A stretch of 64,000 nucleotides of DNA from the NCBI GenBank assembly GCA_050250535.1, contig JBFWOL010000005.1, positions 31,735 to 95,734 of the forward strand. Reading direction: 5' to 3'. The DNA comes from Fimbriimonadaceae bacterium (lineage in GTDB: Bacteria > Armatimonadota > Fimbriimonadia > Fimbriimonadales > Fimbriimonadaceae). Numbering within the stretch: position 1 is the first letter of the stretch; each line of letters starts with the position of its first letter. The position numbers were made by a program, and so were the translations under genes. The notes under the pieces are model-generated. The model was not told the DNA's origin. It made no database searches and saw only the letters and a list, made by a program, of their open reading frames with translations. This document shows, in pieces, positions 1-56,361 of this stretch.

Positions 1-1659
1 ACGTACCGTGGCATCTTTGGCTGCCACGTGGGCCTCGTGATTCGCAGACTGCGTCGGATGTGCGACTGGATGAAAAACAGTCCCCAGTTCGTGCTGACGA
101 GTGCGACCATGGCCGACCCGTTACGGACTGCGCACGACCTCACGGGCCTTCCGTTCGAGGCTGTGACCGAAGATGGTGGGCCCCAAGGAAAACGGACGCT
201 GGTCACCGTACCGAACGTGCTGGACGGGCCGAGTCCGAACGCCCTGGCCTCCCACCTTCTTGCGCGGCTTTCCGCACGAGGGATACGAACGCTCGCTTTC
301 GGCCGGTCTCGCCCTTCAGTCGAGCTGATGGCCCGCTCGGCCAAGCGTGCGCTCAAGGACGCCCGGCTGGATCCCGCGATGGTCGATCCCTACCGTGCGG
401 GCTACACCCCAAAGGAGCGACGGGAGATCGAAAGGCAGCTCTTTGAGGGACGATTAGTCGGCCTGGCGGCTACCAGCGCAATGGAACTGGGCATTGACGT
501 GGGCGAGTTGGCTTGCGTGTTGGTGAACGGCTATCCCGGTGCCGTCTCCAGGTTCTGGCAGCAGGCAGGGAGGGCCGGTCGGGCGGGAAAGGACGCCGTC
601 GTCGTCTATGTGGCGCACGCGGACGCACTGGAGAACCTCCTTGCCGAAGAACCTGACCGACTCGTGGACGGTGCCTTGGAGCAAGGGATCCTGAAGCTGG
701 ACAACCCCTATGTCGCGGCTGGCCAGCTGCGTTGCGCGGCCTATGAAAGGCCGGTGGCCGAGGAGGAACTCGATGTGCTGGGCCCAGGCGCGTCACAGGC
801 TGCCGAGACCTTGGTCGAGTCTGGGTTGGCCGTCCAGGCGAGGGGGCTGTTGCTCGTCCCCGACCATCTCTCGCCTGCGCGAAGTATCGGGCTGAGGTCC
901 GCCGAGTCAGACTCGGTGTCATTGAGCGTTGGCGGAAGCGTCCTAGGCGAGATGGAGCGGTGGCGGGCGATGAGGGAGGCACACCCGGGGGCCGTCTATC
1001 TTCACCGTGCCCAGCCCTATCTGGTGCGAGAGCTCGACCTCGCCCACGGAACCGCGCGCGTGGAGCCGACCGACGTTCCGTACTTCACCCGCCCGATCGT
1101 GCAGACCCTTGTACTGTCCAAAGTGGAACTCGAGCAGGAAGGAAGGTGGCGCCTTGACGCGGTGCAGGTGACGACGTCGGTCGTCGGATATCGAAGGCTC
1201 AGTCTGGAAGGCGCAGAGCTGCTGGCCGAAGAGCCCCTCCAACTGCCGCCTCACGAGCTCGATACGCTCGGAGCACGGCTCGATCTTGGCGGCCTTGTCC
1301 CGAGCGCGTCGCCCGAGGCTGTGCATGCCCTGGAGCACTGCCTCGCCGCGATGGCTCCGCTGGCCACGGGATGCGACAGGAACGACGTCTCCACGGCCTG
1401 GGCCGTTGTGGCCCCGGACACAATGGAGCCGGTCGTCTATGTTCTCGATACGGTGCCCGGCGGTACCGGGATCGCGGAAGAGGCGTACCGGCGGAGATCC
1501 AACCTATTGGAGGGGGGGCTTGCGCTGCTTGAGGCGTGCCGGTGTCCGGACGGGTGCCCAAAGTGCCTCCTCTCTCCTCAGTGCGAGGCGGGCAACGCGG
1601 GCCTGGACAAGCCAGGCGCAGTCGCCCTGCTCAGGATCCTCCAAGAGCCGACTTCATGA
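1..1659 (+). CDS. DEAD/DEAH-box helicase, MrfA/YprA (Lhr-like) family with C-terminal DUF1998 Zn-ribbon; 5'-partial (continues upstream of window)
   Basis: Frame is open from nt 1. Helicase motifs SAT (VLTSATMADP) and motif VI-like region; C-terminal CRCPDGCPKCLLSPQCEAGN four-Cys module typical of DUF1998. Confidence 0.75.
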   Translation, partial: TYRGIFGCHVGLVIRRLRRMCDWMKNSPQFVLTSATMADPLRTAHDLTGLPFEAVTEDGGPQGKRTLVTVPNVLDGPSPNALASHLLARLSARGIRTLAFGRSRPSVELMARSAKRALKDARLDPAMVDPYRAGYTPKERREIERQLFEGRLVGLAATSAMELGIDVGELACVLVNGYPGAVSRFWQQAGRAGRAGKDAVVVYVAHADALENLLAEEPDRLVDGALEQGILKLDNPYVAAGQLRCAAYERPVAEEELDVLGPGASQAAETLVESGLAVQARGLLLVPDHLSPARSIGLRSAESDSVSLSVGGSVLGEMERWRAMREAHPGAVYLHRAQPYLVRELDLAHGTARVEPTDVPYFTRPIVQTLVLSKVELEQEGRWRLDAVQVTTSVVGYRRLSLEGAELLAEEPLQLPPHELDTLGARLDLGGLVPSASPEAVHALEHCLAAMAPLATGCDRNDVSTAWAVVAPDTMEPVVYVLDTVPGGTGIAEEAYRRRSNLLEGGLALLEACRCPDGCPKCLLSPQCEAGNAGLDKPGAVALLRILQEPTS

Positions 1660-2476
1660 ACCCGGTCGCCTTGGCGAAGGCGTCCTTGGCGTCTTCGTTG
1701 TCATAGGCTTTCGAACTGGGGTTGCTGAAGGCGTGGTCGGCTTCGTACGCCTCGACGGTCAACGTCTTTCCCGCCTTTTCCATGGCTTCCTTGAACCCGT
1801 CCACCATCGCCTTGTTGATCCACTGATCCTTGGTGGGCCATACCATGAGAACAGGTGCGCGGAGCTTGGCCAGTTCGCCCTGGTCGGTGACCGGTTGACC
1901 GTAATAGATGACGCACGCCTTGACGGCATCTCCACCGAGGATCGCTGTGCGGTGCGACCAGCCGCCGCCGAAGCAAAAGCCTACCGTCGCCAGCTTGGCG
2001 TCCTTCGCCAGCCCGCCGTTCCGGAGCACGGCGAGCGCGCCTTGGACGACCTTGTTGGCTCGATCCGTGTCCACGGCACGCATGTATTCTCCGGCTTGCG
2101 CCGCATCGGTCGCGACCTTGCCCTCGTAGAGGTCAATGGCGAGGGCGGCCCCACCGATTGCAGCCGCATACTCGTCAGCAACCTTGCGGACGTAATCGTT
2201 CAGCCCCCACCACTCGTGGATCACGACCACGACTCGGTCGGGATCCTCTTCGGTGGCGACCCAGTATCCGCGCCCGCCATTGGGATCTCCGTCTACCTCA
2301 AAACGTACTTCCTCGCCTCGGAGCCCGGTCACCGGCTTGTCGCTGAGGGTATGGGCGGCGTGGAAGTCGGAGTCCCCGGAGTGCGCAGTGAGCGCGTCCT
2401 TGGCCGGGTTACACCCGCAGGCCGCGAGAAGTACGGCCACAAGGATCGTCAGGGTCAGGTGGGTCGTGGCGTCCAT
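1631..2476 (-). CDS. dienelactone hydrolase family lipoprotein
   Basis: Signal peptide with lipobox LLAACGC; alpha/beta-hydrolase DLH-like core (VIHEWWGLNDY, GFCFGG). Confidence 0.7.
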   Translation of the reverse strand: MDATTHLTLTILVAVLLAACGCNPAKDALTAHSGDSDFHAAHTLSDKPVTGLRGEEVRFEVDGDPNGGRGYWVATEEDPDRVVVVIHEWWGLNDYVRKVADEYAAAIGGAALAIDLYEGKVATDAAQAGEYMRAVDTDRANKVVQGALAVLRNGGLAKDAKLATVGFCFGGGWSHRTAILGGDAVKACVIYYGQPVTDQGELAKLRAPVLMVWPTKDQWINKAMVDGFKEAMEKAGKTLTVEAYEADHAFSNPSSKAYDNEDAKDAFAKATGFMKSALGGS

Positions 2477-2497
2477 ACCGGTATTCTACGCGCTCCG

Positions 2498-3526
2498 ATG
2501 ATCGTTGTCATGCAGCTTGGTGCCACCCAGGAGCAGATCGACGCTGTCTGTAAGGTCATCCGCGACCACGGCCACGAGCCGCTCGTCCTGCCTGGCCAGG
2601 ATCGCCTCGCGGTCGGTGTCCCCGACTCTCTCGGTTCCGACGAGCGTTCCTCGATCGAGGGTCAAATTGCGCGGCTTGAGGGCGTGAGCAAAGTCACGCA
2701 AACGTCGAGTCCGTATAAGTTAGCCAGCAGAGAGTTCCATAGGATCGGCACCAAGGTAGAGGTCGGGCCCGTAACTTTCGGTGGAGGGAAGTTTGTCGTG
2801 ATTGCCGGGCCGTGCTCGGTTGAGTCCTATGATCAGTTCAGCACGTCGGCAGACATCGTCAAGCAAGCCGGGGGGACGGTCCTTCGCGGCGGGGCGTTCA
2901 AGCCACGCACGTCGCCTTACTCCTTTCAAGGCCTCCAGGTCGAGGGCCTGCAGATCATCAAACAGGTGGGAAAAGAGACTGGCCTCACGACGATCAGCGA
3001 AGTGATGACCGCGGACATGGTGGGCACGGTCGCCGAGTATGTGGACATCCTCCAGATCGGTGCCCGCAGCATGCAAAACTTCCCGCTCTTGATCCAGGCA
3101 GGGCAAAGCCGCAAGCCGGTCTTCCTGAAGCGCGGGCCGAGCGCGACGATCGACGAGTTTCTCTTGGCGGCCGAGTACCTGCTCAACCAGGGCAACGACC
3201 AGGTGATCCTTTGCGAGCGGGGAATCATGCCGCTCGACCGCGCCTACACGAGGAACACGCTCGACCTTGCCGCGGTGCCCGTCCTCAAAGAGAACACGCA
3301 CTTGCCAGTCGTGGTAGATCCCTCGCACGGTACCGGGGTTGCGCGGTATGTGGAGCCAATGGCCAAGGCGGCGCTTGTGGCCGGGGCAGACGGGATCATG
3401 GTCGAGACGCACCCGGAGCCGTTGACTGCACTCAGCGACGCAGGCCAGGCGCTGGATCCGGTGCAGTTCCGGGGGTTGATGGATTCCCTCCGCACGTTGG
3501 CGCCAGTTTGTGGGACGTCCCTCTAG
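2498..3526 (+). CDS. 3-deoxy-7-phosphoheptulonate (DAHP) synthase, type I-beta, with N-terminal ferredoxin-like regulatory domain
   Basis: KPRTSPYSFQG motif and TIM-barrel aldolase core. Only the 3' 343 codons of track ORF 1286..3526 are coding (the 5' part is antisense to the DLH gene). ATG at 2498 is in frame. Confidence 0.8.
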   Translation: MIVVMQLGATQEQIDAVCKVIRDHGHEPLVLPGQDRLAVGVPDSLGSDERSSIEGQIARLEGVSKVTQTSSPYKLASREFHRIGTKVEVGPVTFGGGKFVVIAGPCSVESYDQFSTSADIVKQAGGTVLRGGAFKPRTSPYSFQGLQVEGLQIIKQVGKETGLTTISEVMTADMVGTVAEYVDILQIGARSMQNFPLLIQAGQSRKPVFLKRGPSATIDEFLLAAEYLLNQGNDQVILCERGIMPLDRAYTRNTLDLAAVPVLKENTHLPVVVDPSHGTGVARYVEPMAKAALVAGADGIMVETHPEPLTALSDAGQALDPVQFRGLMDSLRTLAPVCGTSL

Positions 3527-7893: not shown

Positions 7894-8269
7894 CCTTCTT
7901 ATCTTTGACGAACGCGCCGAGCGCTGCGGACACGGCGGCGACCAGGATGCTTCCTAGGAGAGCGGGAAGGAACCCGTTCACGGTGAGTCCCAGGTTCAAC
8001 GAGCCGACAACCATCAGCATCGCGGCGTTGACCACGAGCGAGAAAAGCCCTAGAGTAAGGCAATTGAGCGGGAGTGCGATCAGTTTGATCAGCCGTCCGA
8101 GCGTGGCGTTCAGCAGTGACAGTAACCCTGTGGCGAGGAAGAGAGAGACCACGTCGCCCGCTCCCTTCAGTTCCACCACGAACCCGCCCGGCAGCACCAT
8201 CGAAGTGAGCAAGGCTGCCGCTACGACGGACACCGCAAGAACGATCCAGTTCAGGAAGAAGCGCCTCAT
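7886..8269 (-). CDS. phage-holin-4_2 / DUF360 (YvlD-like) family membrane protein
   Basis: 127 aa with four hydrophobic helices and a KDKKDD tail, typical of the YvlD family; overlaps yvcK by 8 nt. Confidence 0.65.
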   Translation of the reverse strand: MRRFFLNWIVLAVSVVAAALLTSMVLPGGFVVELKGAGDVVSLFLATGLLSLLNATLGRLIKLIALPLNCLTLGLFSLVVNAAMLMVVGSLNLGLTVNGFLPALLGSILVAAVSAALGAFVKDKKDD

Positions 8270-8324: not shown

Positions 8325-10883
8325 ATGCGGCCACAGACGCCGATGATGAGACAGTACTGGGAGGCCAAAGACGCCCACCCGGACGCCCTCATTGCCATGC
8401 GCGTCGGGGACTTCTACGAGTTTTACGGCGAGGACGCCGAGACCGCGGCGGGTGCACTGGAGATCACGCTGACCGGTCGCGAGGACGGCAAGAACGGCCG
8501 GATCCCGATGGCGGGCGTACCGTACCACTCCATCGAGCGCTACCTTGCGAAGCTGGTCCGTTCTGGCTTCAAGGTCGCTTTGTGCGAGCAGCTGGAAGAC
8601 CCCAAGCTAGCCAAGGGCCTCGTCAAACGGGGAGTCAGCCGCGTTCTGAGTGCAGGCACGATCGTCGAGGAAGGGTTGCTCGACTCGGCGACGAACAACT
8701 TCCTCGCCGCGGTGGCGGTCGTAGACGGCAGAGCGGGTCTGGCGGTGCTTGATCTCTCCACGGGAGAGTTCCTCGCGACGGAAGCCCAGGGCGAAGAGGG
8801 CTGGGAAAGGCTCTTGGGCGAGCTCTCCCGATTGCGTCCGGCAGAGTTGCTGGTGCCGGAGGAAGGGTGCGACGTACCGTTTTCCGATGCGGTGCATACC
8901 ACCTCGAAGCCGTTACCGCTCGGGAGGGCGGAGTCCCAACTCTCGCGCCAGTTCGGCGTCTCGACGCTCCGCGGCTTTGGCCTGGACGGAAGGGACGCGG
9001 CGGTGACTGCTGCCTCGATGCTCGTGAGCTACGCGGGGACGAGCGGGCTCTCTCTCGGACACGTCTCTGGCATCGCCCACTACTCGATCGAGGGCTTCAT
9101 GCAGCTCGACCAGTCCACCCGGCGGGCGCTCGAACTGACCCAAAACTCCTCCGACGGGTCTCGACGACACACCCTTCTCGCAACGCTCGACCGGTGCTCC
9201 ACTCCGATGGGGTCGCGGCTCCTGCGCAGGTGGGTCGAGCAACCCTTGCTGGATCCTGGGGAGACCGAGCGAAGGCTCGACGCCGTCGGTCGCCTGGGCG
9301 AACACGGTGGCACCCGCGCCGAGGTGCGCGAGGCTCTCGCGAAGCTCGGCGACATGGAGCGGCTGGGGGCCAGGGCGGTCTCCGGCATCGCCGGACCTCG
9401 CGACCTCCTTCGTCTACGCGGTGCACTCGCGGGCCTGCCCCGGCTCGACGACAGCCTCCGCAAGGTAGGGGTCGGGCTCATCCACGACCTGCGCGAGCAG
9501 TTGGGCGACCACGCAGAGCTGGACTTAAAGCTACGTACGGCGCTTTCCGAAGATCCGCCCCACCATGCCCGCGAGGGTGGTTGCTTCCGCGAAGGCTTCG
9601 ATGCCGAGCTCGACAAGCTCCGGGAGATTGAGCGAGAGGGCAAGGCCTTCATCGCCAAGCTGGAGCAGCAGGAAAGGGAGGCGAGCGGGATTGACAAGCT
9701 CAAGGTGGGCTACAACTCGGTGTTCGGCTACTACCTCGAGGTTCCGCGCAGCCAGGCGGACAAGGTGCCGAGCCACTACGTGCGCAAACAGACCACGGCA
9801 GCGGCCGAGCGTTACATCACGGCAGAGATCAAAGAGCACGAGAGCGCGGTAGTCGGCGCACAGGAGAAGGCGGCCCAGCTTGAGACCGACCTGTTCGACC
9901 GGCTTCGGGCCAGCGTCGCGGCGGAGGCAGCCGCGATCGTTTCGAGCGCACGGGCGGTGGCCGCACTTGACGTCCTTTCTTCCCTTGCGGAGGCAGCCGT
10001 AAGGAACCGTTACGTCAGGCCGGAGATCGTTGCCGATGACGTCCTCGAGATCGTCCAGGGCCGCCACCCGGTCGTGGAAGAGTCCGGAGGATTCGTCCCG
10101 AACGACACGATGCTCGACTCGGAGACGCGGTGCGTCGTGCTGACCGGACCGAACATGAGCGGCAAGAGCACCTACCTGCGCCAGACCGCGCTCATTGTGC
10201 TCATGGCGCAAATCGGTTCGTTCGTGCCTGCCGTCTCCTGTAGGCTCAGTCCCTGCGACCGGATCTTCACCCGCGTGGGCGCCCGGGACGAGCTCGCACT
10301 CGGCCAATCCACATTCATGGTCGAGATGACGGAGAGCGCCAACATCCTGAACCACGCCACCGAGCGTTCGCTCGTAGTGCTGGACGAGGTCGGACGTGGC
10401 ACCTCGACTTTTGACGGTCTTGCGATCGCGTGGGCGATGTGCGAGCATCTTTCAGCGATCCGTTGCAAGACGCTGTTCGCGACCCACTACCATCAGCTAA
10501 ACGCGTTGGCCGGCCAGGTCACCGCGATCACGAACTGGAGGGTCGCGGTGGAGGAGCACGAGGGCGAGATCGTCTGGTCGCACCGCGTTCTCCCAGGGGG
10601 CACGGACAAGTCGTACGGGATCCACGTTGCCAAGATGGCCGGAGTGCCGCCGAGCGTCCTTCGCCGGGCGGAAGGGGTGCTCGCAGAGCTGGAGGGAACC
10701 GAGCGGCCGGTCACAGCGTCAGCTCCGGCGACGAGCCGGATGCAGATGTCGCTCTTCGTTCCCGACGACACGCTCGCCCGAGAGATCGAGGCCACGGACG
10801 TCGCGAAGATGACCCCGCTCGAGGCCTTGGTCCGCATTGACGAGTGGAAGAAGAGGATCGCCGGTTCGGCACCGAAGGGCTAG
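8325..10883 (+). CDS. mutS: DNA mismatch repair protein MutS
   Basis: MRQYWEAKDAHPDALIAMRVGDFYEFYGEDA N-terminus; Walker A GPNMSGKSTYLRQ; DEVGRGTSTFDG. Real ATG at 8325; the track ORF prefix 7905..8324 is antisense to the holin-like gene. Confidence 0.9.
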   Translation: MRPQTPMMRQYWEAKDAHPDALIAMRVGDFYEFYGEDAETAAGALEITLTGREDGKNGRIPMAGVPYHSIERYLAKLVRSGFKVALCEQLEDPKLAKGLVKRGVSRVLSAGTIVEEGLLDSATNNFLAAVAVVDGRAGLAVLDLSTGEFLATEAQGEEGWERLLGELSRLRPAELLVPEEGCDVPFSDAVHTTSKPLPLGRAESQLSRQFGVSTLRGFGLDGRDAAVTAASMLVSYAGTSGLSLGHVSGIAHYSIEGFMQLDQSTRRALELTQNSSDGSRRHTLLATLDRCSTPMGSRLLRRWVEQPLLDPGETERRLDAVGRLGEHGGTRAEVREALAKLGDMERLGARAVSGIAGPRDLLRLRGALAGLPRLDDSLRKVGVGLIHDLREQLGDHAELDLKLRTALSEDPPHHAREGGCFREGFDAELDKLREIEREGKAFIAKLEQQEREASGIDKLKVGYNSVFGYYLEVPRSQADKVPSHYVRKQTTAAAERYITAEIKEHESAVVGAQEKAAQLETDLFDRLRASVAAEAAAIVSSARAVAALDVLSSLAEAAVRNRYVRPEIVADDVLEIVQGRHPVVEESGGFVPNDTMLDSETRCVVLTGPNMSGKSTYLRQTALIVLMAQIGSFVPAVSCRLSPCDRIFTRVGARDELALGQSTFMVEMTESANILNHATERSLVVLDEVGRGTSTFDGLAIAWAMCEHLSAIRCKTLFATHYHQLNALAGQVTAITNWRVAVEEHEGEIVWSHRVLPGGTDKSYGIHVAKMAGVPPSVLRRAEGVLAELEGTERPVTASAPATSRMQMSLFVPDDTLAREIEATDVAKMTPLEALVRIDEWKKRIAGSAPKG

Positions 10884-11869
10884 ACGACACGGACAAGCGG
10901 CCCGCCTGGGAGTATCCGCCCGATCTCGACCGAGCCTTGGACCTCTCCTGTGCATGCGACGGCGAGGCCACCGCTGGTCTGGGGATCAAGGACGACTTCC
11001 CGTAGCCACTCGGGCACGGTATCGGCAAACTCTAGCGCAGACTCCCAATGGGAAAGGTTACGACGGGCCCCGCCGGTAGAGTGGCCCGCGGCGATCAGCC
11101 TCTCGATTCCCGGCAGAACGGGCAGTCTCGCCGCGTCCACCTCGATCGTGACGCCGCTGGCCTTGGCGATGTGGGAGAGGTGCCCGGCTAGGCCGAATCC
11201 GGTGACGTCCGTCGCGCACCGTGCCCCGGCGGCGAGCGCGGCCTCCGCAGCCTTGCGGTTGAGCTGTTTCATCGTCGCCACCGCGGCGGCGAGCTCATCT
11301 TCGCTCGCGCCGTCATTCTTGGCGGCCGTTGCCACGATCCCCGTGCCCACTGGCTTGCTCAGCCAGAGCCGGTCGCCTGGCTCGGCCTTGTCGTTTTGCA
11401 GCGTCCGGCCCGGGTTCACGATGCCGGTGACCGACATCCCGAACTTGGGCTCGCGATCGTCTACCGTGTGTCCGCCTACGAGCACCGCACCGGCCTCGAC
11501 CGTCTTGTCGTGCATTCCTTGTAGCACCGCGGCCCACACCTCTGGGGGCGCTAGGCTAGGGTCGAAACAGGCTATGTTCAAGGCCGTGACAGGCGTGCCC
11601 CCCATCGCGTAGACGTCGCTCAGTGCGTTCGCGGCCGCTATCTGGCCATAGTCATAGGGGTCGTCGACGATGGGCGGGAAAAAGTCCAAGGTCTGCACGA
11701 GGGCGCTACCGTCGGGCAGGGCGAAGACCCCCGCGTCGTCCGAGGTCGAAAAACCGACCAACAGACGCGGGTCGTTCGCTTGAGGCAGGCGGCCGAGCAC
11801 GTCGGCCAACTGGGCAGGGCCCAGCTTGCCCGCTCAACCGGCGCAAGAAGCGAGATGTGTCAATCGCAC
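10880..11869 (-). CDS. selD: selenide, water dikinase (selenophosphate synthetase) SelD, selenocysteine-containing (in-frame TGA at 11834..11836)
   Basis: Track ORF starts at TTG 11809. The same frame read upstream gives GTG(11869) RLTHLASCAGU(TGA)AGKLGPAQ-LADVLGRL, which aligns with E. coli/H. influenzae SelD [11 protein letters not shown](C/U)[9 protein letters not shown]. A TAG lies immediately upstream of the GTG. Confidence 0.8.
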
Positions 11870-11882
11870 ACCCGCATGCTAC

Positions 11883-12626
11883 CTAGAGCTTGAGCCGCTT
11901 GAAGATCCGTTCGGGCACGAGTCGGAAGACCGACATGACGAGCCGCCATGGGCCTGGCACGTACACGACGTCGCGCCGCTTCTCGATCGCGGCGGCGATC
12001 TTCTCGGCCACGTCCTCGGGCTGGGCGAGGAGCGGCAGCTTGCCCATTCCGAAAGTCATCGCAGTGTCCACGGGGCCGGGCTTCACCGTGATGACCGAAA
12101 CTCCGGAGTGGACGAGCCGTGCCCTCAGGCCCTGGAGAAACGCGCTGAGCCCAGCCTTGGCCGATCCATAGAGATAGTTCGACCGTCGGCCACGGTCGCC
12201 TGCCACTGACGACATGGCACAGATCCATCCGCCGCCCCGGTCTTCGAAAATGTTGGCGACGTCGAGCAGGACCAGTGCAGGAGCGGTGTAGTTCGCCGAC
12301 ATCACGCGGACGGCCTCGGCCTCGTCGTGCTCGGCCTCCTCTTGCGAACCGAGGTAGCCGACGGCCATGACGACTCCTTCTAACGGGCCGGTCTCTCGCT
12401 CCGCCGCTTCCACCACCTGTCGGCCCGCGCCCTCGGCGGTCGCTTCAAACCTGACAACGACACAGGCTCGGCCCGTTCGGATCGTCAGGTCGCTCGCGCT
12501 CGCGTTGAGGTCGTCCACGTCTCTCCCTGCCAATACGATGATGTGGCCTTTCTGGGCGAGCTTCAGCGCAATCTGGCGGGCGATCGCGCTTCCCGCACCA
12601 AGGATCAAGACCGGGCCAGGCGTCAT
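11883..12626 (-). CDS. short-chain dehydrogenase/reductase, DprE2-like (decaprenylphosphoryl-2-keto-ribose reductase homologue)
   Basis: Rossmann motif LILGAGSAIARQ; SDR core; ATG (12624-12626) overlaps the TGA of the upstream DprE1 gene (ATGA coupling), the same arrangement as the mycobacterial dprE1-dprE2 pair. Confidence 0.65.
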   Translation of the reverse strand: MTPGPVLILGAGSAIARQIALKLAQKGHIIVLAGRDVDDLNASASDLTIRTGRACVVVRFEATAEGAGRQVVEAAERETGPLEGVVMAVGYLGSQEEAEHDEAEAVRVMSANYTAPALVLLDVANIFEDRGGGWICAMSSVAGDRGRRSNYLYGSAKAGLSAFLQGLRARLVHSGVSVITVKPGPVDTAMTFGMGKLPLLAQPEDVAEKIAAAIEKRRDVVYVPGPWRLVMSVFRLVPERIFKRLKL

Positions 12627-13984
12627 GCGAGGCCGAGCCTCCGAGCCAGGTCGCTCGACAACCGAGAGGAAGGGTCGCACGCTTCGCGCACCTGCCGAAA
12701 CTCCGGGAGCCGGGGGTACATCCGCTCAAAGGCGGCACGAGACAGCCTGGCGTCTTTGGCCAGGTACACGCGGCCGCCGGCATCTGCGACGATATCGTCC
12801 ATTCGGTCGAGCACGGCCTCGATCCCGGTCCGCATCGGTAGGTCGAGGGCCAAAGTCAAGCCGGGCATCGGGAACGAGAGCATGCCTTCTCCCTGACTGC
12901 CGAACTTCTTGAGCACGCCCAGGAACGAACCGTAGCCGCCGTCCGCCAAGGACTGGATGACGGTGCGTACGGTCGCCCTCGCGGTCTCGGGCGGGGCGAC
13001 GAACTGGTACTGCAGAAACCCGCGCTTGCCGTACATCCGGTTCCAGCCATGGATCGCATCCAGTGGATAGAAGAAAGGCTCGATCGGACAGAGAAACCTC
13101 CCGCGGCGTCCTTGGAGCCAGTGGTAGATGGAGTTGCCCAGTCGGATCGTGAAGGGGTTCAGTGCCCAGCCGGGTAGATCGAAGGGGAACGGCTTGGCAC
13201 GCTTGGGTCTCCATTCGAGGGCAGCGCGACCGCCGGGAATCTGGTCGAGGGCGGCGTGCTCCCCCGTCATCAGGACGCCCCTTCCCAGATGGGGGCCCGC
13301 TGCCATTCCGTCGATCCAAGCGACCGAGTAGGTTGCGTCGTGGGCCGGGTCGTCCAGAAGGTCGAAGAGTTCGTCAAGGGTCCGGGCTGGGCTGTGCTGG
13401 ACCGCCATCCACGACGTTTCGACCCGCTTGAGCCGCAAGGTGAGCGTCGAGACCATTCCGGTCAGACCCATGCCCCCAGCTGTCGCCCAAAAGAGGCCGG
13501 CGTCCTCCTGCGGGGTGACCCAGGCGGTGGCCCCGTCGGGCCTGACAAGCTCGAAGGATCTCACGTGGTTGCTAAAGCTGCCTGCCACGTGGTGGTTCTT
13601 GCCGTGAACGTCGGCGGCGAGACAGCCGCCTAGGGAACAGAACCTCGTCCCAGGGGTCACGGGCAAGAACCACCCGTGAGGGATCAGGGCTTCGATGACG
13701 TCCTCCAGCGTCGCCCCTGCCTCCGCCGTCAGGTCGCCGGTCTCCGAGTTGAACCCGAGCATCCGGTCGAGCCGCTCGGTCAGCACGACCGTGCCGAGGG
13801 AGTTCAATGCTGCGTCGCCGTAAGAACGGCCTTGTCCTCGAGCAAGGCTGGAGGCGCCGATCGGGCGGAGTCCGCGCCGTCGCTCCGGCCTCGTCAGCTT
13901 GGCAGGAGCTATCGGATGGTTGCCCCACCCAGAAAGCCGTTCGACCTCGGAAGTTTTGGCAGGCGCTGGTTCGGGGAGGCTCAT
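12623..13984 (-). CDS. dprE1: FAD-dependent decaprenylphosphoryl-beta-D-ribose 2'-oxidase DprE1 family
   Basis: Close full-length match to recalled M. tuberculosis DprE1 signatures: RLSGWG, GQGRSYGD, PGTRFCSLGGCLAADVHGKNHH..GSFSNHVRS, LFWATAGGMGLTG, FLQYQFV, MYPRLPEF..VREACDP. The Cys387 position is Ala. Confidence 0.8.
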   Translation of the reverse strand: MSLPEPAPAKTSEVERLSGWGNHPIAPAKLTRPERRRGLRPIGASSLARGQGRSYGDAALNSLGTVVLTERLDRMLGFNSETGDLTAEAGATLEDVIEALIPHGWFLPVTPGTRFCSLGGCLAADVHGKNHHVAGSFSNHVRSFELVRPDGATAWVTPQEDAGLFWATAGGMGLTGMVSTLTLRLKRVETSWMAVQHSPARTLDELFDLLDDPAHDATYSVAWIDGMAAGPHLGRGVLMTGEHAALDQIPGGRAALEWRPKRAKPFPFDLPGWALNPFTIRLGNSIYHWLQGRRGRFLCPIEPFFYPLDAIHGWNRMYGKRGFLQYQFVAPPETARATVRTVIQSLADGGYGSFLGVLKKFGSQGEGMLSFPMPGLTLALDLPMRTGIEAVLDRMDDIVADAGGRVYLAKDARLSRAAFERMYPRLPEFRQVREACDPSSRLSSDLARRLGLA

Positions 13985-13989
13985 CGAGG

Positions 13990-15261
<1,272 letters not shown>

Positions 15262-36044: not shown

Positions 36045-36637
36045 GGATCTTGACCTTGGTCGCGGCCTTGATGCTGAGTGCATCGGCGTTGGCGCAGGAC
36101 GGTTCTAAGGCAAACCCGGGCTCACTGGTGAACAGTGGCGCGTCGAGCCCGTTGACCGATATCGTAGCCCGGAGGGTCGGTGACCTGTTGACAGTCATCG
36201 TGGACGAGAAGGCACTGGCGGAGTTTGCCGCTAAGACCCAAGCAAGCAAGAGTGACAGCGCGAGTTTCTCGCCTTCGTTCTTCGTAGACTTCTTCCAGCG
36301 CATTTTCCGTCCATTCAGCGTTTCTTCGTCCAGTAAGACCCAGGGCGACGGTACGACGACGAACACGCAAAAAATGGAGGCGAGGCTAACCGCCAAGGTG
36401 ATCGAGGTGACGCCCGAAGGCAACCTGGTCATCGAGGGTGTCCGGACTCTCGTCACGAACAAGGACAGCCAGACGCTCTATGTGAGGGGCACGGTTCGGC
36501 GGTTCGACGTCCAGCCCGACAACACCGTGAAGAGCGCGAGCCTCGCCGATGCCGAGGTCAGCACCGTCGGTAAGGGCTTGGTCGCAGATCGCCAGAAGCG
36601 CGGATTGATCACGAGCCTGCTGGAGTGGCTTTTCTAA
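36041..36637 (+). CDS. flgH: flagellar L-ring protein FlgH
   Basis: Signal peptide; LTDIVARRVGDLLTVIVDE and LVIEGVR..QTLYVRGTVR..D...N.V motifs; ATGA overlap with flgA. Confidence 0.85.
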   Translation: MRILTLVAALMLSASALAQDGSKANPGSLVNSGASSPLTDIVARRVGDLLTVIVDEKALAEFAAKTQASKSDSASFSPSFFVDFFQRIFRPFSVSSSSKTQGDGTTTNTQKMEARLTAKVIEVTPEGNLVIEGVRTLVTNKDSQTLYVRGTVRRFDVQPDNTVKSASLADAEVSTVGKGLVADRQKRGLITSLLEWLF

Positions 36638-37854
36638 TGAAGAACATCGTATCTCTCGCTCTCCTGCTCGCCGCGGTGCTCGCGGGCGCGCAGGCTCCGC
36701 CGGCCACAGGTCAACCGGAGCTCACCGCCCAACAGAAGGCGGAGTTGGATCGGATTCTTGGCGAACGGGCCAAACAGGCCGACCAATCGATTCGAGACGC
36801 TGAGAACGGAGGCATTGCCGTGCGCCTCGGCGACATCGGCCAGTTCCGTGGGGCGCGGTCGAACGTGATTACCGGGATTGGCCTAGTTGTCGGCTTGGCC
36901 GGGACGGGGGACACGAAGTCCACGCCCTGGACCGCAACTCTGATCAGCAACGCCATGCGTCGATGGGGCACGTTTGTGGACGACACCGCCGTCCGATCGA
37001 AGAACATTGCAACGGTCATGGTGACCGCCGAAGTCCCGCCGTTCCTGGCTCCGGGCTCGAAGATGGACATCACGGTCAGTAGCAACGGAGACGCCAAGAG
37101 CCTGGAAGGAGGAGTCTTGCTGCCTACGTTCCTGGCTGGCCTCTCCAAGCCTGAGGACACCGTCGCCGTAGCGTTCGGCCCTGTGAGCATTGGAGGCTTC
37201 AACGCGTCTTCTGGAGGCTCCTCCGTGCGCAAGAACCATCCGACCGTGGCCCTCGTGACCGACGGAGCGACCCTCGAGGCGAGCGTCCCGACGCAGTTTG
37301 TCTTCGACAATGGCACGATGTACTTCGACCTCGACGACCCCGACTTTACGAACGCCGAACGGGCCGCGTCTGCCATCCAGCTTGCAGTGCCCGGGGCATC
37401 GGCACGCGCCATAGACGGTGCTACTGTCGAGATCACGCTTCCCGGCGGGATGCCTGCGACCGCGCTGGCGAGCCAGGTCAGCGGCACGACCATGATGGCG
37501 AACACGCCCGGCACGGTCGTGGTGAACGAGAGGACGGGAACGATCATCGTCGGCGGCAATGTCCGGCTCGGCCCCGCGCTCATCGCCCACGGCTCCCTCA
37601 GCGTAAGAGTCACCACCGACTACCTGGTGAGCCAGCCTGCTCCCTTTTCCGACGGCCAGACCACAGTGGTGGCGATCCCGAACGTCGAGGCGAGCGAGTC
37701 ACCTGCCCAGACCCAACTGATCGCTCCAAACGCCACGCTCAGTGACCTCGCCCGAGTGCTCCAGGAGCTCAAGGTCTCGGCTCGCGACGTTATCGCCATC
37801 CTCCAGGGACTCCAGCGCCAGGGAGCGCTCAAAGCCCGGGTGGTGCTCCAGTGA
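36637..37854 (+). CDS. flgI: flagellar P-ring protein FlgI
   Basis: Signal peptide; VRLGDIGQFRGARSNVITGIGLVVGLAGTGD; TAATG overlap with flgH. Confidence 0.9.
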   Translation: MKNIVSLALLLAAVLAGAQAPPATGQPELTAQQKAELDRILGERAKQADQSIRDAENGGIAVRLGDIGQFRGARSNVITGIGLVVGLAGTGDTKSTPWTATLISNAMRRWGTFVDDTAVRSKNIATVMVTAEVPPFLAPGSKMDITVSSNGDAKSLEGGVLLPTFLAGLSKPEDTVAVAFGPVSIGGFNASSGGSSVRKNHPTVALVTDGATLEASVPTQFVFDNGTMYFDLDDPDFTNAERAASAIQLAVPGASARAIDGATVEITLPGGMPATALASQVSGTTMMANTPGTVVVNERTGTIIVGGNVRLGPALIAHGSLSVRVTTDYLVSQPAPFSDGQTTVVAIPNVEASESPAQTQLIAPNATLSDLARVLQELKVSARDVIAILQGLQRQGALKARVVLQ

Positions 37855-38207
37855 CCGGGATTGGCCTCCGACCGGACTTCGCCAGGATCGTCTCTCAGGC
37901 GCTCCAGCCAGGGCAGGAGGTCTCGGAACTGACCCGGCTCAAGTTGGTGCGCGGCCAGCGTGCTTCCGAGGACTTTGAGGCAATGTTCGTCAAGAACCTC
38001 CTTGACGTGGCCCGGCGGACAACGCTCTCGCAGGACGAAAGCGCGGTCTCCGATTTCGCCCGCGACATGTTGAACACCGGAATCGCCCAGGCCGTCAGCC
38101 GGCGCGCGCCCGGGCTTGGCGTCGCCACCCTCGTCTTCCAGAAGACCGCCCAGGCGCTGATTGCGCAGGAAGAGTCTTCCCCGACCCCACCCGAAACACG
38201 ACCATGA
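37851..38207 (+). CDS. flgJ: flagellar rod-binding protein (FlgJ N-terminal domain only)
   Basis: ASEDFEAMFVKNLLDVARR..DFARDMLNTGIAQAVS matches the Rod-binding domain; no muramidase domain. Confidence 0.6.
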   Translation: MTGIGLRPDFARIVSQALQPGQEVSELTRLKLVRGQRASEDFEAMFVKNLLDVARRTTLSQDESAVSDFARDMLNTGIAQAVSRRAPGLGVATLVFQKTAQALIAQEESSPTPPETRP

Positions 38208-38692
38208 CAACCAAGAACATGACGAACCGGATCGAGCAGCTCTGGAAGGAGTGGCTTGCCATCTCCGAGCGCCTCCAGGGCCTGCTCCACGAACAGACGG
38301 TAGCGCTCACCATGCGCGATACCGCACGACTAGAGAAGCTCCAGCCCGCGATCGATACGGTCGTAGAGAAGCTCGGCACCGTGGATGCGGAAGCTGTGGC
38401 CATGGGGAAGAAGCTGGCCGAAGAGCTGGGGTGCGAACCCAGCCTTCGAGGCTTGACCCAGGCGCTTGAGAAAGCCGATGCACAGCGACTACAGCAGATC
38501 GCAAACCGGGTCATCGTTTCCGAAAGGCAGGCGAGCCACGTAATGAAGAAGAACCGCAGTCTGATCGAGAACGAGCTCGAGCACATCGGCGGAACCTTGG
38601 CTCTCATCGCTCGCGAGGCCTCGATCCCGACCAACCCGTACCTGCATCCATCCCCGGCGACCCACGCCGTCGTGATGAATGCGGTCGCGTGA
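38204..38692 (+). CDS. flgN: FlgN-family flagellar export chaperone
   Basis: Helical ~160-aa protein immediately upstream of flgK-flgL; FlgN-like N-terminal pattern. Confidence 0.55.
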   Translation: MTTKNMTNRIEQLWKEWLAISERLQGLLHEQTVALTMRDTARLEKLQPAIDTVVEKLGTVDAEAVAMGKKLAEELGCEPSLRGLTQALEKADAQRLQQIANRVIVSERQASHVMKKNRSLIENELEHIGGTLALIAREASIPTNPYLHPSPATHAVVMNAVA

Positions 38693-38734
38693 ACCGAGAA
38701 TACAGATATGCCCGGTTATCTCGACGGGGTGAGC

Positions 38735-40099
38735 ATGATGGCGCAGGCTCTGCGCGCGTTCCAACGCGGCATTGACACGGCCGGCCACAACCTGGCAAAC
38801 GTGAACACGCCAGGCTACTCTCGCCAGCGCGTGAACCTCTCGACGACTGAGGCAATGAGGTTCTACGAGGGGGACTGGCGGTTCCAGGGCCAAGGCGTGA
38901 ACCTAACTTCGATATCCCGGGCTCGCGACTTGGTTCTCGAGAGCCGTTGGCGTGGGCAGTTGGGCCAGTTCGTACGTGCCGAAACGTCGGCGAACGGCCT
39001 GGCTCGAATCGCCGGGGTCTATGCCGAACCCGGCGAGAACGGCATCTCCCATGCGTTCACCCGGTTTTTCGATGCATGGAGCGGGTTCGGAGCAAACCCG
39101 AACGACCAAGCGGCGAGACTCGAGGTCCGTCAGCAAGGGGCTAACTTAGCCAGCAGGATCCGGGGCGCATGGTTCGCCCTGGAAGGTGAGGCTAACCAGG
39201 CCACCGGCGACGTGCAGGACACCATCGCCCGGATCAACACCTTGGCAGGGCAGATCTCCGAATTGAACGCCCGGGTCCAGGCGTCATCCTTGGACAAGTC
39301 CAACCCCAACGACCTGTTGGACCAGCGTGACGCGGCGGTGCGCGAGCTTTCACAGCTAGTGAACGTGAGCGTCAGCCAGAACCCAGGTGGGGCGTATGTC
39401 GTCCATGCGTCCGGGTTCTTGCTGGTCACCGACTTCGGCGCACGGAGTTTCCCGTCCACCTTTGATGCGTCCACTGGGACGGTCAGCGATAACGGTGTGT
39501 CCTACACTGTCCGCGAGGGTGCCCTCGCCGGACACATGCAGACCCTGCGGACGGCCCGCACCCAGCAGTCCCAGCTCGACGTCCTCGCAAACGAACTGCG
39601 CGACGCGGTAAACACCATCCACCGCACAGGGACCAACTTCAAAGAGGTTACGGACATCGACTTCTTCAATCCGCGAAGCACGGATCCGCTCGTGCCGACA
39701 GGCGCATTCGACCTCGCACTTTCCGACCTCTTGCAGGAGAGTGCGGACTATGCGGTCGCAGGCGTCAGCGGCAAGCCGGGCGACGGTGCGCTCGCACACG
39801 AGATCGCCGGACTGCGGCAGGTCGCGCTGCTCGCGCTCAACGGAAGGACGTTGAGCGGGTTCTATGGCGAGCTATCCCATGGCGTTGCTGCTGACGCGGC
39901 CGCCTACCAGCAGTCGGCGGACATTGCCTCCGCGGTGCTCGACCAGACCGTCCAGCAGTCGGAGGCGGCGAGCGGCGTGAACCTGGACGACGAAATGGCG
40001 CAATTGATCCAGTACCAGCGGAGCTTCCAGGCCGCGGCCAAGGTGCTGTCGATCATGGACGAGGTCGCCCAAGACTTGATCGGGATGCTGAGGAGATAG
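38735..40099 (+). CDS. flgK: flagellar hook-associated protein 1 FlgK
   Basis: MMAQALRAFQRGIDTAGHNLANVNTPGYSRQR; C-terminal LDDEMAQLIQYQRSFQAAAKVL; GGGGTGAG SD before ATG 38735. Confidence 0.85.
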   Translation: MMAQALRAFQRGIDTAGHNLANVNTPGYSRQRVNLSTTEAMRFYEGDWRFQGQGVNLTSISRARDLVLESRWRGQLGQFVRAETSANGLARIAGVYAEPGENGISHAFTRFFDAWSGFGANPNDQAARLEVRQQGANLASRIRGAWFALEGEANQATGDVQDTIARINTLAGQISELNARVQASSLDKSNPNDLLDQRDAAVRELSQLVNVSVSQNPGGAYVVHASGFLLVTDFGARSFPSTFDASTGTVSDNGVSYTVREGALAGHMQTLRTARTQQSQLDVLANELRDAVNTIHRTGTNFKEVTDIDFFNPRSTDPLVPTGAFDLALSDLLQESADYAVAGVSGKPGDGALAHEIAGLRQVALLALNGRTLSGFYGELSHGVAADAAAYQQSADIASAVLDQTVQQSEAASGVNLDDEMAQLIQYQRSFQAAAKVLSIMDEVAQDLIGMLRR

Positions 40100-53861: not shown

Positions 53862-54626
53862 GTGATTCTTCTTGTGGCGGGTGTCGCGCTCGGTCAGGTT
53901 CAGAACCGGGCGCGCCGTGCCGGTTCCTTGGACGGAGCGACCGCCATGGTCCAGCGGGCGCTCTCGGGCCCCTCGGCCGCAATCCGGCAGACCGCGCAGG
54001 CCAACGGTGCCCGATGGCAGTCTCTCATGGACTCCGGGCGGTTGAACTCGGAACTCGAGCGGCTGAGAGCCACAGAGCGAGCCTCGGCTGCTTACCTTGA
54101 GCGGCTCAAGTACCTGGAGTCCGAGATTCGACGGATGGAGGCGATCGAGGGCATCAACACCGCTGGTCGAACGCAAATCCGTGCGCAGGTGGCTGGACTG
54201 AACCCCTATGCCCACCGACTCACCTTGAACGTCGGCAGCGACGCTGGGGTGGAGCCTGGGATGCCGGTTGTGAACGGTGACGGCCTGCTTGCCCTGGTCG
54301 AGTCGGTGGGAGCACGCCAGTGCCAGGCGCTCCTCCTCACTTCGGCTGCCTCCAAGTTCGGCGGCACGACAGCCGGGGAGAAGCCTGTCGCGGGCCTGGT
54401 CCGAGGGTACACGCCGGGGCGGCTCCTCATCGAGCTTCTGCAGGAGGGCGAGGTCACGCCAGGCCAGGAGATCGTGACGTCAGGATATTCGGCCGCGATT
54501 CCCCGTGGGCTGCTCGTGGGAACGGTCTTGGAAGTCTCGACGGATCCTAGCCTGGGCGTCCGGCAGGCAATCCTGCTTCCAGCGGCCAGGGTCGGCAACA
54601 CCCTGGAGGTCGTCGTGCTCCGATGA
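53862..54626 (+). CDS. mreC: rod shape-determining protein MreC
   Basis: N-terminal TM anchor, coiled-coil, C-terminal beta domains (..GDGLLALVESV.., ..EIVTSGYSAAIPRGLLVGTV); GTG start; the in-frame upstream stretch contains no ATG/GTG/TTG. Confidence 0.8.
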   Translation: MILLVAGVALGQVQNRARRAGSLDGATAMVQRALSGPSAAIRQTAQANGARWQSLMDSGRLNSELERLRATERASAAYLERLKYLESEIRRMEAIEGINTAGRTQIRAQVAGLNPYAHRLTLNVGSDAGVEPGMPVVNGDGLLALVESVGARQCQALLLTSAASKFGGTTAGEKPVAGLVRGYTPGRLLIELLQEGEVTPGQEIVTSGYSAAIPRGLLVGTVLEVSTDPSLGVRQAILLPAARVGNTLEVVVLR

Positions 54627-55102
54627 TTTGGGTCGCCAGGCTGGTGTGGCTCTTGCTCGTCACGGGCGCGGTCATGGTTCAGTTCGCTGCACCAGGAGTG
54701 CTGGGGATCGGGGCGTTTGCGCCAGATCTGCCGTTGCTCTCGGCCCTTGTGTTCGCGATCCTCGCTCGGCCCATCGGGGGCGCGGTCGCGGGTTGGTACA
54801 TGGGCACTTTGACCGGGTTGCTCGCGGGTGCAGACCTTGCAGCGCACTCGCTCGCGGCGTGCCTTGCCGGGTTCGCGCTCTCTTGGCCGGGCGAAAGGGG
54901 GATCAACGTGACTGCGCCGGTCTTTGCCGCCCTCGTCGCCTTAGGCACGATCGTACACGGGGTCCTCTTCGTACTGCTGGCCCCTTCGTCCGGGCTGGGT
55001 GGGTTCCTTCAAGATACAATCCTCGCGGCGGTCTACAACGGCGTGCTCGCCTTTCCGATCGGAGTGGTGGCGCACAAAGCCTTCTGCAGGCCAATGCCCT
55101 AG
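54623..55102 (+). CDS. mreD: rod shape-determining protein MreD
   Basis: Polytopic 159-aa membrane protein immediately after mreC; ATGA overlap. Confidence 0.7.
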   Translation: MIWVARLVWLLLVTGAVMVQFAAPGVLGIGAFAPDLPLLSALVFAILARPIGGAVAGWYMGTLTGLLAGADLAAHSLAACLAGFALSWPGERGINVTAPVFAALVALGTIVHGVLFVLLAPSSGLGGFLQDTILAAVYNGVLAFPIGVVAHKAFCRPMP

Positions 55103-55110
55103 GATCATCG

Positions 55111-56361
55111 ATGAGCGAAATTGACGTTCTCAGCATGGCGCGCGAGCAGTTGAAGACGGCTGCCCACTACCTAGATCTCGACGAAGGGCTCCATGAAGTG
55201 CTCGCCGCCCCTAAGCGGCAGCTCATAGTGCACTTTCCTGTGGTGCTGGATAGCGGCGAGGTCCGCTGCTTCGAGGGCTATCGTGTCCAGCACAACGTCA
55301 GCCGAGGACCGACCAAGGGCGGCATACGGTACCACCCCGACGTTGACCTGGGCGAGACGACTGCGCTCGCGATGTGGATGACGTGGAAGTGCGCTGTAGT
55401 CAATATTCCTTATGGCGGGGCCAAGGGCAGCGTCAAGGTCAACGTCAAGGAACTGAGCAAGCGCGAGATTGAAAAGCTGACCCGCCGCTACATCAGCGAG
55501 ATCAACATCGTGGTCGGGGAGCGGAGCGATATTCCCGCCCCGGACATCGGTACGAACGCCCAGGTGATGGCCTGGATCATGGACACGCTCTCCATCCAGG
55601 CGGGATACACGCTTCCCGGCGTCGTGACCGGCAAGCCGATCGAGCTAGGCGGCTCAGAGGGCCGGGTCGAGGCGACCGGCCGCGGCGTCGTGGTCTCGGC
55701 GATCGAGGCGTGCAAGGAGGCAGGTATCGAGCTGGGCGGTTCCAAGGTCGCCGTGCAGGGCTTTGGCAACGTCGGTTCTGTCGCTGCAGAGATCTGCGAA
55801 AGGGAGGGCGCGACGGTGGTCGCCGTGAGCGACGCGACCGGAGGGATCTATAACCCGAAAGGCTTGCCGGTGGCGGAACTGTACCGAAACTACAGCGGCG
55901 TGGACGGCGGTATCCGCAACTACAAGGAGTGCGAGCAGGTGTCGAACTCCGACTTGCTCGAACTGGAGTGCGACGTGTTGCTCCCTTGTGCGATCCAGGG
56001 ACAGATCACAGAGCACAACGCCGAAGAGATCAAGGCGAAGGTTATCGTTGAGGGCGCGAACGGGCCCACAACACTTCAGGCCGATAGGATCCTCAGTGAC
56101 AAAGGTCGGATGGTTGTACCGGACATTCTCGCCAATGCAGGGGGGGTTGTTACGAGCTACTTCGAGTGGGTGCAGGACCTCCAGAACTTCTTCTGGAGCG
56201 AGGACGAGGTCACCGAACGGCTGGCCAAGATCATGCGACGGGCATTCCACGACGTGCACGCCGTGCAGCAGAGGCACAAGACCGACATGCGCACGGCGGC
56301 AATGATCATCGCGGTGCAGCGTGTGGCCGATGCGACGACCCGACGCGGCATCTTCCCGTAG
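55111..56361 (+). CDS. gdhA: Glu/Leu/Phe/Val dehydrogenase family (glutamate dehydrogenase)
   Basis: KGGIRYHPDVDLGETTALAMWMTWKCAVVNIPYGGAKG; NAD(P) site GFGNVGS; the track ORF prefix 54505..55110 is an out-of-context read-in frame. Confidence 0.9.
   Translation: MSEIDVLSMAREQLKTAAHYLDLDEGLHEVLAAPKRQLIVHFPVVLDSGEVRCFEGYRVQHNVSRGPTKGGIRYHPDVDLGETTALAMWMTWKCAVVNIPYGGAKGSVKVNVKELSKREIEKLTRRYISEINIVVGERSDIPAPDIGTNAQVMAWIMDTLSIQAGYTLPGVVTGKPIELGGSEGRVEATGRGVVVSAIEACKEAGIELGGSKVAVQGFGNVGSVAAEICEREGATVVAVSDATGGIYNPKGLPVAELYRNYSGVDGGIRNYKECEQVSNSDLLELECDVLLPCAIQGQITEHNAEEIKAKVIVEGANGPTTLQADRILSDKGRMVVPDILANAGGVVTSYFEWVQDLQNFFWSEDEVTERLAKIMRRAFHDVHAVQQRHKTDMRTAAMIIAVQRVADATTRRGIFP

Follow-up and report, generated by a model that had tools for sequence, protein, structure and literature searches.

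Selenophosphate synthetase (SelD) and FdhA are the most widespread selenoproteins of bacteria (PMC1794560). Among prokaryotic selenoprotein families, the selenocysteine (Sec)-containing form of SelD has also been ranked second in breadth of distribution, and it is often mis-annotated; it occurs in many bacteria, always with Sec at one and the same position (PMC4561486, PMC13188914, PMC13326102), and accounts for 19% of the SelD genes of one set of reference genomes (PMC4561486). The window analysed here, the whole 64,000-nucleotide (64-kb) stretch of contig JBFWOL010000005.1 from a Fimbriimonadaceae bacterium, contains a selD gene on its minus strand (Table 1). This gene is very probably a functional selD of an Armatimonadota (Fimbriimonadaceae-like) bacterium, with a catalytic Sec encoded by UGA. 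The position of the in-frame UGA at the catalytic loop, and the loss of the conserved N-terminus during the calling of open reading frames (ORFs), are strongly supported by the alignments described below.

The selD reading frame and its catalytic loop

The ORF list places selD at 10880..11809 as a product of 309 residues starting from a TTG codon, which leaves out the catalytic N-terminus, and P0001, the public call of this gene, is likewise a 309-residue protein and begins MADVLGRL. In the full-length frame, the GTG at 11869-11867 is followed by the codons CGA TTG ACA CAT CTC GCT TCT TGC GCC GGT, then by the in-frame TGA and by GCG GGC AAG, and the frame continues uninterrupted through the TTG at 11809-11807, from which it reads LADVL, to the TAG stop at 10882-10880. 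The N-terminal translation is thus VRLTHLASCAG[U]AGKLGPAQLADVL, where U represents the TGA codon. The preceding in-frame TAG (11881-11879), which the original prediction had set immediately before the GTG, is separated from it by three codons (CAT GCG GGT), none of which can start translation; the GTG is therefore still the first possible start codon, and its assignment as the natural N-terminus stands.

The product, named selenide, water dikinase (selenophosphate synthetase), was scored with Cys substituted for the UGA (329 residues). It matches the SelD equivalog TIGR00476 with 371.5 bits (curated cutoff, 125 bits) over profile positions 1-309 of 311, the extension included, and NF002098 with 320.4 bits (curated cutoff, 299 bits), and it contains the Pfam domains AIRS (PF00586, 93.3 bits) and AIRS_C (PF02769, 52.6 bits). 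As aligned with SelD of Escherichia coli (PDB 3u0o; query residues 1-315, E = 3.7e-70), the first residue of the extension pairs with residue 6 of the E. coli enzyme and the extension covers the catalytic loop, where the UGA is aligned with Cys17, and K15 with Lys20; the UGA also pairs with the equivalent Cys of chain 2yye from Aquifex aeolicus. The glycine-rich N-terminal loop reads SCAG-U-AG-K, with the predicted Sec three residues ahead of the conserved Lys. The original prediction of a selenoprotein gene with a missed N-terminus, of a Sec three residues before this Lys, and of 20 upstream codons that a profile search would align with the N-terminus of SelD is borne out by these results, as the match to TIGR00476 begins at its first position and the frame, the profile, the relatives and the downstream hairpin agree.

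Residues D62, D69, N81, D85 and D221, located at ATP/metal-binding positions of the AIRS fold, are invariant in a 31-sequence alignment (A1), in which D44 and D45 are conserved in at least 90% of the sequences. The ATP/metal-binding Asp and Asn residues line up with those of the E. coli enzyme, and the remainder of the gene is intact, with all invariant residues of the family present.

The loop segment C-A-G-U also forms a CxxU motif composed of Cys9 (11843-11845, minus strand) and Sec12. A Cys at position -3 from the Sec is present in 29 of the 57 Sec-type selD genes sampled, compared with 2 of 12 Cys-type genes, and Cys9 might form a protective selenenylsulfide with Sec12.

Conservation of the UGA codon and of the downstream hairpins

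Eighty genomic loci were fetched and 66 were parsed with a SelD alignment, in a sample biased toward relatives of the Sec-type query. These loci represent Armatimonadota, Gemmatimonadota, Chloroflexota, Bacillota, Acidobacteriota and other phyla, and the codon at the Sec position is TGA in 54 of the 66 and TGC or TGT in 12. The nearest public proteins belong to Armatimonadota, mainly Fimbriimonadaceae. Full-length Fimbriimonadaceae homologs start with MRLTHLVSSAGCASKLG (MRLTHL...) and have Cys at the Sec site, while other homologs, of about 302-315 residues, are called from MGPAQL, LADVL or MAEVL, directly past the Sec site.

Among the closest loci, the protein identity to the window SelD is 79% for L081, 81% for L082 and for L083, a metagenome-assembled genome (MAG) at NCBI, and 100% for L084, which is an independent sequencing run and assembly with the identical TGA. 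The GTG, the TGA and the extension are kept in all four. Within codons 1-20, the window gene differs from L081 at nine codons (seven synonymous and two non-synonymous changes) and from L082 at five, four of them synonymous. The more distant Fimbriimonadaceae loci L002, L004, L005 and L006 also keep the TGA and the N-terminal stretch; a GTG or ATG stands at the same alignment column in these four and in L081 and L082, and the nucleotide conservation in the four distant loci begins exactly at the ATG/GTG, with none upstream. Judged from these alignments, such a pattern is the signature of a translated N-terminus and would so exclude both a sequencing error and a decaying remnant.

One further locus, L003 (CAWHLK010000021.1), is labelled 'uncultured archaeon' and encodes a Cys-type SelD with 56% identity to the window protein and a Fimbriimonadaceae-type N-terminus, MRLTHLVASAGCASKLG; the taxonomic label of this bin looks wrong. 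A look-up of the locus of P0027 from Fimbriimonas ginsengisoli returned no gene recorded with exactly that product.

The 67 nucleotides (nt) from the UGA fold with a free energy of -34.9 kcal/mol (z = -2.7), and the minimum free energy (MFE) structure consists of two adjacent hairpins, the proximal HP1 and the distal HP2, inside a basal stem. The published limits for a bacterial selenocysteine insertion sequence (bSECIS) are an apical loop of 3-9 nt that begins 16-37 nt past the UGA, an upper stem of 4-16 base pairs (bp), a G in loop position 1 or 2, usually followed by G or U, and an MFE of at most -7.5 kcal/mol (PMC13188914). HP2 lies within every one of these limits, with its 6-bp stem, its loop C-G-U-G-C, a spacing of 32 nt and -9.3 kcal/mol, while HP1 falls outside them, as its CCU loop contains no G and its spacing of 15 nt is just short. 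A different hairpin, GGGCA/UGCCC (5 bp, 10-nt loop, -6.1 kcal/mol, 7 nt past the UGA), had been put forward as the SECIS; this assignment is abandoned here, since the hairpin is outside both the MFE and the centroid structures, competes with HP1 and violates the bSECIS limits of loop size and spacing. A scan of positions 11600-12000 against Rfam, with E-values up to 10, matched neither a bacterial SECIS nor any other family.

For the comparative analysis of the hairpins, 57 Sec-type genes were aligned without gaps. In the HP2 columns, 68% of the cells are paired and five of the seven pairs have changed on both sides, the stem variants including GCGCAG/CUGCGC, CGGAG/CUCCG, ACUCAA/UUGAGU and GCACAG/CUGUGC. 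The covariation score, which covers HP1 in the +22 register jointly with HP2, is 0.27, against a mean of 0.15 for shuffled alignments (0 of 500 shuffles reach the observed score) and 0.09-0.15 for slid controls. At least six of the seven HP2 pairs are formed in 31 of 58 Sec genes versus 1 of 12 Cys-type genes (Fisher's exact p = 0.004), and 29 of the 31 HP2-bearing genes have GU(U/G/C) in the middle of the loop. In the seven Fimbriimonadaceae Sec genes, 89% of the HP1 cells and 90% of the HP2 cells are paired; pairs of HP1 change from C-G to G-U and from C-G to U-A, and those of HP2 from G-C via G-U to U-A (positions 31/45) and from C-G to G-C (positions 33/43).

Sec genes without HP2, such as those of Gemmatimonadaceae, contain a stronger proximal hairpin, GGGUCC-GGN-GGACCU, in another register and with its loop at about +21. 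There are thus at least two SECIS layouts among selD genes, and the window selD has the two-hairpin layout. A single HP1 register across all phyla was considered and rejected, as at least two registers, centred at +20 and +22, are present. A basal stem closing both hairpins (positions 7-10 with 50-53) was not established, with 62% of its cells paired; weak pairing of the Gly-Lys with the Leu-Pro codons may close the two-hairpin element into a three-way junction.

Its agreement with the consensus makes HP2 most probably the best candidate for the SelB-binding apical stem-loop of the SECIS, while HP1 is probably a conserved proximal hairpin acting as a spacer or helper instead of a SelB-binding loop. 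All testable defining features of the SelD family, and those of the bSECIS model, are found in this gene, and its product is predicted to synthesize selenophosphate. In the proposed mechanism, translation would initiate at the GTG, and a SECIS stem-loop within the coding sequence, most probably HP2, with HP1 lying between it and the UGA, would recruit SelB-GTP and Sec-tRNA(Sec) at the UGA, so that Sec would be inserted in place of termination. The resulting 329-residue product, with Sec12 and Lys15 located in its glycine-rich N-terminal loop, would then form selenophosphate from selenide and ATP.

A broader proposal is offered only tentatively and is rather doubtful at present: in this lineage, and in about half of the Sec-type selD genes sampled from several phyla, the selD SECIS may consist of two hairpins in tandem, with the SelB-binding GU loop on the distal hairpin about 32 nt past the UGA and the conserved, covarying proximal hairpin serving as a structured spacer or pausing element. 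If so, the element would form an architectural class of its own, distinct from the lone proximal hairpin with which other selD genes have been annotated.

Selenocysteine machinery and alternative readings

Several observations weigh against a Sec-encoding selD. No tRNA-Sec, selA or selB was found in the 64-kb window by ARAGORN, Rfam, NCBIfam and tblastn, nor within 10 kb of selD at the Fimbriimonadaceae loci. A clear Shine-Dalgarno sequence is wanting ahead of the selD GTG. In HP2, a C·C mismatch closes the loop, where most relatives have a G-C pair, and the 32-nt spacing is near the top of the 16-37 nt range.

The tRNAs of the window are tRNA-Arg and tRNA-Leu only, and NCBIfam identified neither SelA nor SelB among the 17 window ORFs of at least 400 residues. 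Neither the window nor the Fimbriimonadaceae loci gave a tblastn match to verified SelA and SelB of Armatimonadota. When a verified Capsulimonadaceae SelA was searched against a protein database, none of the hits carried a Fimbriimonadaceae label, which says little either way, as most hits are nameless; one cluster belonged to Azospirillum. In other Armatimonadota, the Capsulimonadaceae locus L050 contains a cluster of selA (TIGR00474, 555 bits), selB (TIGR00475), selD and tRNA-Sec, and L023 contains selB, selD and tRNA-Sec together. The tRNA-Sec gene lies about 10-110 nt 3' of selD in these two loci and in six loci of Gemmatimonadaceae (L007, L009, L011, L012, L015 and L066), while the Fimbriimonadaceae selD loci, including that of the window, have no clustering of selD with tRNA-Sec. 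We infer that selA, selB and selC are probably located elsewhere in the genome, because lineage-wide purifying selection is seen on the UGA-interrupted N-terminus and on the SECIS. A scan of the window for other genes with a read-through TGA, based on G+C content at third codon positions, returned about 46 hits, many of which are apparently adjacent genes or antisense frames; it was non-specific and missed selD, because the extension is short.

The alternative that survives best, and is still very improbable, is that the TGA is a true stop, so that SelD is either N-terminally truncated and starts from the TTG, or a decaying pseudogene with remnant similarity upstream. The truncated model matches the ORF list and the public gene calls, and truncation or decay would accord with the Sec machinery not being found within the window. 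However, a truncated SelD would lose the catalytic loop with its Sec/Cys and Lys, and among genes whose proteins are only 56-81% identical, the start, the TGA and the 11 codons ahead of it have been conserved with mostly synonymous changes, which would not be expected of neutral remnants. The covarying hairpin after the TGA, which is specific to TGA-type genes, and the intact rest of the gene also argue against truncation.

Slightly less probable still is the decoding of the UGA as one of the standard amino acids (Cys, Trp or Gly), by code reassignment or near-cognate suppression, without any Sec machinery. There is a general precedent for it, as some bacterial lineages have reassigned UGA, and Cys or Trp can enter at Sec codons by near-cognate decoding when selenium is limiting. 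Against this, TGA terminates 21 of the 48 confident ORFs in the window and is therefore not a reassigned codon, homologs show only Cys or TGA at the site, and the conserved SECIS-like hairpin would have no purpose; the selA-selB-selD-tRNA(Sec) clusters in other Armatimonadota also speak for Sec decoding. Finally, an error in sequencing or assembly could have turned TGC or TGT into TGA, as a Cys codon is only one base away, but this has a negligible probability and is effectively refuted, because the same TGA is shared by independent assemblies, namely L084 (independent reads), L081, L082, the NCBI MAG L083 and the four distant Fimbriimonadaceae loci.

The identification of selD as a selenoprotein gene is thus preferred because of the profile and PDB alignments, the conservation of the TGA and of the extension, and the covarying hairpin downstream.

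Neighbouring genes and comparison with known systems

On the minus strand, the order of genes is serS, a flavin adenine dinucleotide (FAD)-dependent oxidase, a short-chain dehydrogenase/reductase (SDR) and selD, with 13 nt separating the SDR stop from the selD GTG (Table 1). These four genes are tightly packed and co-directional, and are plausibly co-transcribed, as suggested by their arrangement. The selD gene had been described as lying four genes downstream of serS, whose product charges tRNA-Sec; it is actually the third. Only the three closest relatives, L081-L083, keep the gene order from serS to selD, and serS was not found within 10 kb of selD at the other Fimbriimonadaceae loci, so the proximity reflects local gene order and does not amount to a conserved linkage related to Sec.

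Table 1. Positions of selD, its sequence elements and its upstream neighbours in the 64-kb window.
Feature	Position	Strand	Description
Full-length selD	10880..11869	-	329 sense codons and TAG stop (10882-10880); predicted Sec is codon 12
GTG start codon of selD	11867..11869	-	Earliest possible start, following the in-frame TAG at 11881-11879
In-frame TGA (predicted Sec12)	11834..11836	-	Equivalent of E. coli SelD Cys17; 3 residues ahead of the catalytic Lys K15
HP1	11808..11826	-	AGCUGGGC-CCU-GCCCAGUU; 8 bp, 3-nt loop; -11.5 kcal/mol alone
TTG (start in the ORF list and public calls)	11807..11809	-	Internal Leu codon (L21); spans the HP1/HP2 junction
HP2	11791..11807	-	GGCCGA-CGUGC-UCGGCC; 6 bp, 5-nt loop with GU; -9.3 kcal/mol alone
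DprE2-like SDR	11886-12680	-	211.7 bits, under the cutoff of 250; SDR family PRK07102 above its cutoff
DprE1-like FAD oxidase	12626-13984	-	439.7 bits, under the cutoff of 500
serS	13993-15237	-	

The DprE1/DprE2-like pair (11883-13984, minus strand) is tightly coupled between serS and selD and is conserved in L081-L083; DprE1 and DprE2 enzymes are best known from actinobacterial arabinan synthesis. On the other side, selD meets the convergent plus-strand gene mutS, with stops overlapping by 4 nt (10880-10883), so that there is no space for an intergenic terminator; the same overlap is found in L082 and L083. The listed mutS ORF, of 992 residues from a TTG at 7905, is probably over-extended, as the MutS profile begins at residue 144 and the gene of relatives has 854 residues. 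The plus-strand ORF 1286-3526 contains a 3-deoxy-D-arabino-heptulosonate 7-phosphate (DAHP) synthase domain at residues 405-743 of 746, and its start is over-extended, as the gene of relatives encodes 342 residues. In the plus-strand ORF 54505-56361, the glutamate dehydrogenase domain is C-terminal only (residues 203-617 of 618). The window also contains the flagellar genes flgI (P-ring) and flgK (36625-40099, plus strand), which suggests a motile organism with a flagellar basal body of the outer-membrane type.

The corrected annotation places selD on the minus strand at 10880-11869 and includes a translation exception (Sec) at 11834-11836. It concerns public calls which lack the catalytic loop, for example P0001 and several NCBI 'SelD' entries of about 314 residues from Fimbriimonadaceae. 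It would also mark the lineage as a selenocysteine user and predicts tRNA-Sec, selA, selB and probably more selenoprotein genes in its genome. Selenophosphate synthesis in this organism is predicted to depend on the enzyme's own product, a self-dependence known from other organisms with Sec-type SelD. A literature search for Armatimonadetes or Fimbriimonas together with selenocysteine found nothing relevant, and what is undescribed in the literature searched is only the Fimbriimonadaceae lineage and the explicit arrangement of two hairpins with the GU loop on the distal one. As an ordinary annotation correction of a well-known selenoprotein, the finding leaves the current understanding unchanged.

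The Sec-type SelDs of A. aeolicus (PDB 2yye/2zod), Haemophilus influenzae and Acetomicrobium mobile (in BSepDB) belong to the same TIGR00476 family and share with the window selD the position of the Sec, a coding-region stem-loop after the UGA and N-terminally truncated gene calls; the A. aeolicus enzyme (2yye/2zod) was crystallised with Cys at the Sec site. E. coli SelD (3u0o) shares the catalytic loop and the ATP-binding Asp and Asn residues, but differs in having Cys17 (TGC) and thus needs no SECIS. In A. mobile selD, the canonical SECIS given by BSepDB is the proximal hairpin GGGUCC-GGC-GGACCU, which matches the motif of the Sec genes without HP2, whereas the proximal hairpin of the window gene is in another register and has a loop without G, its consensus-like GU loop being located on the second, distal hairpin. 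The SECIS of E. coli fdhF, the prototype of the bacterial elements, has the apical stem-loop GCA-GGUC-UGC, with the loop GU at about +23/+24 from the U of the UGA. It resembles the window element, as both are stem-loops in the coding sequence past the UGA and carry G-U in a small loop at the tip; the HP2 consensus of relatives, GCAGGUUCUGC, is similar to the fdhF apical stem-loop. In contrast to fdhF, the GU of the window HP2, to which SelB is predicted to bind, lies at +37/+38, with HP1 as an extra hairpin in between.

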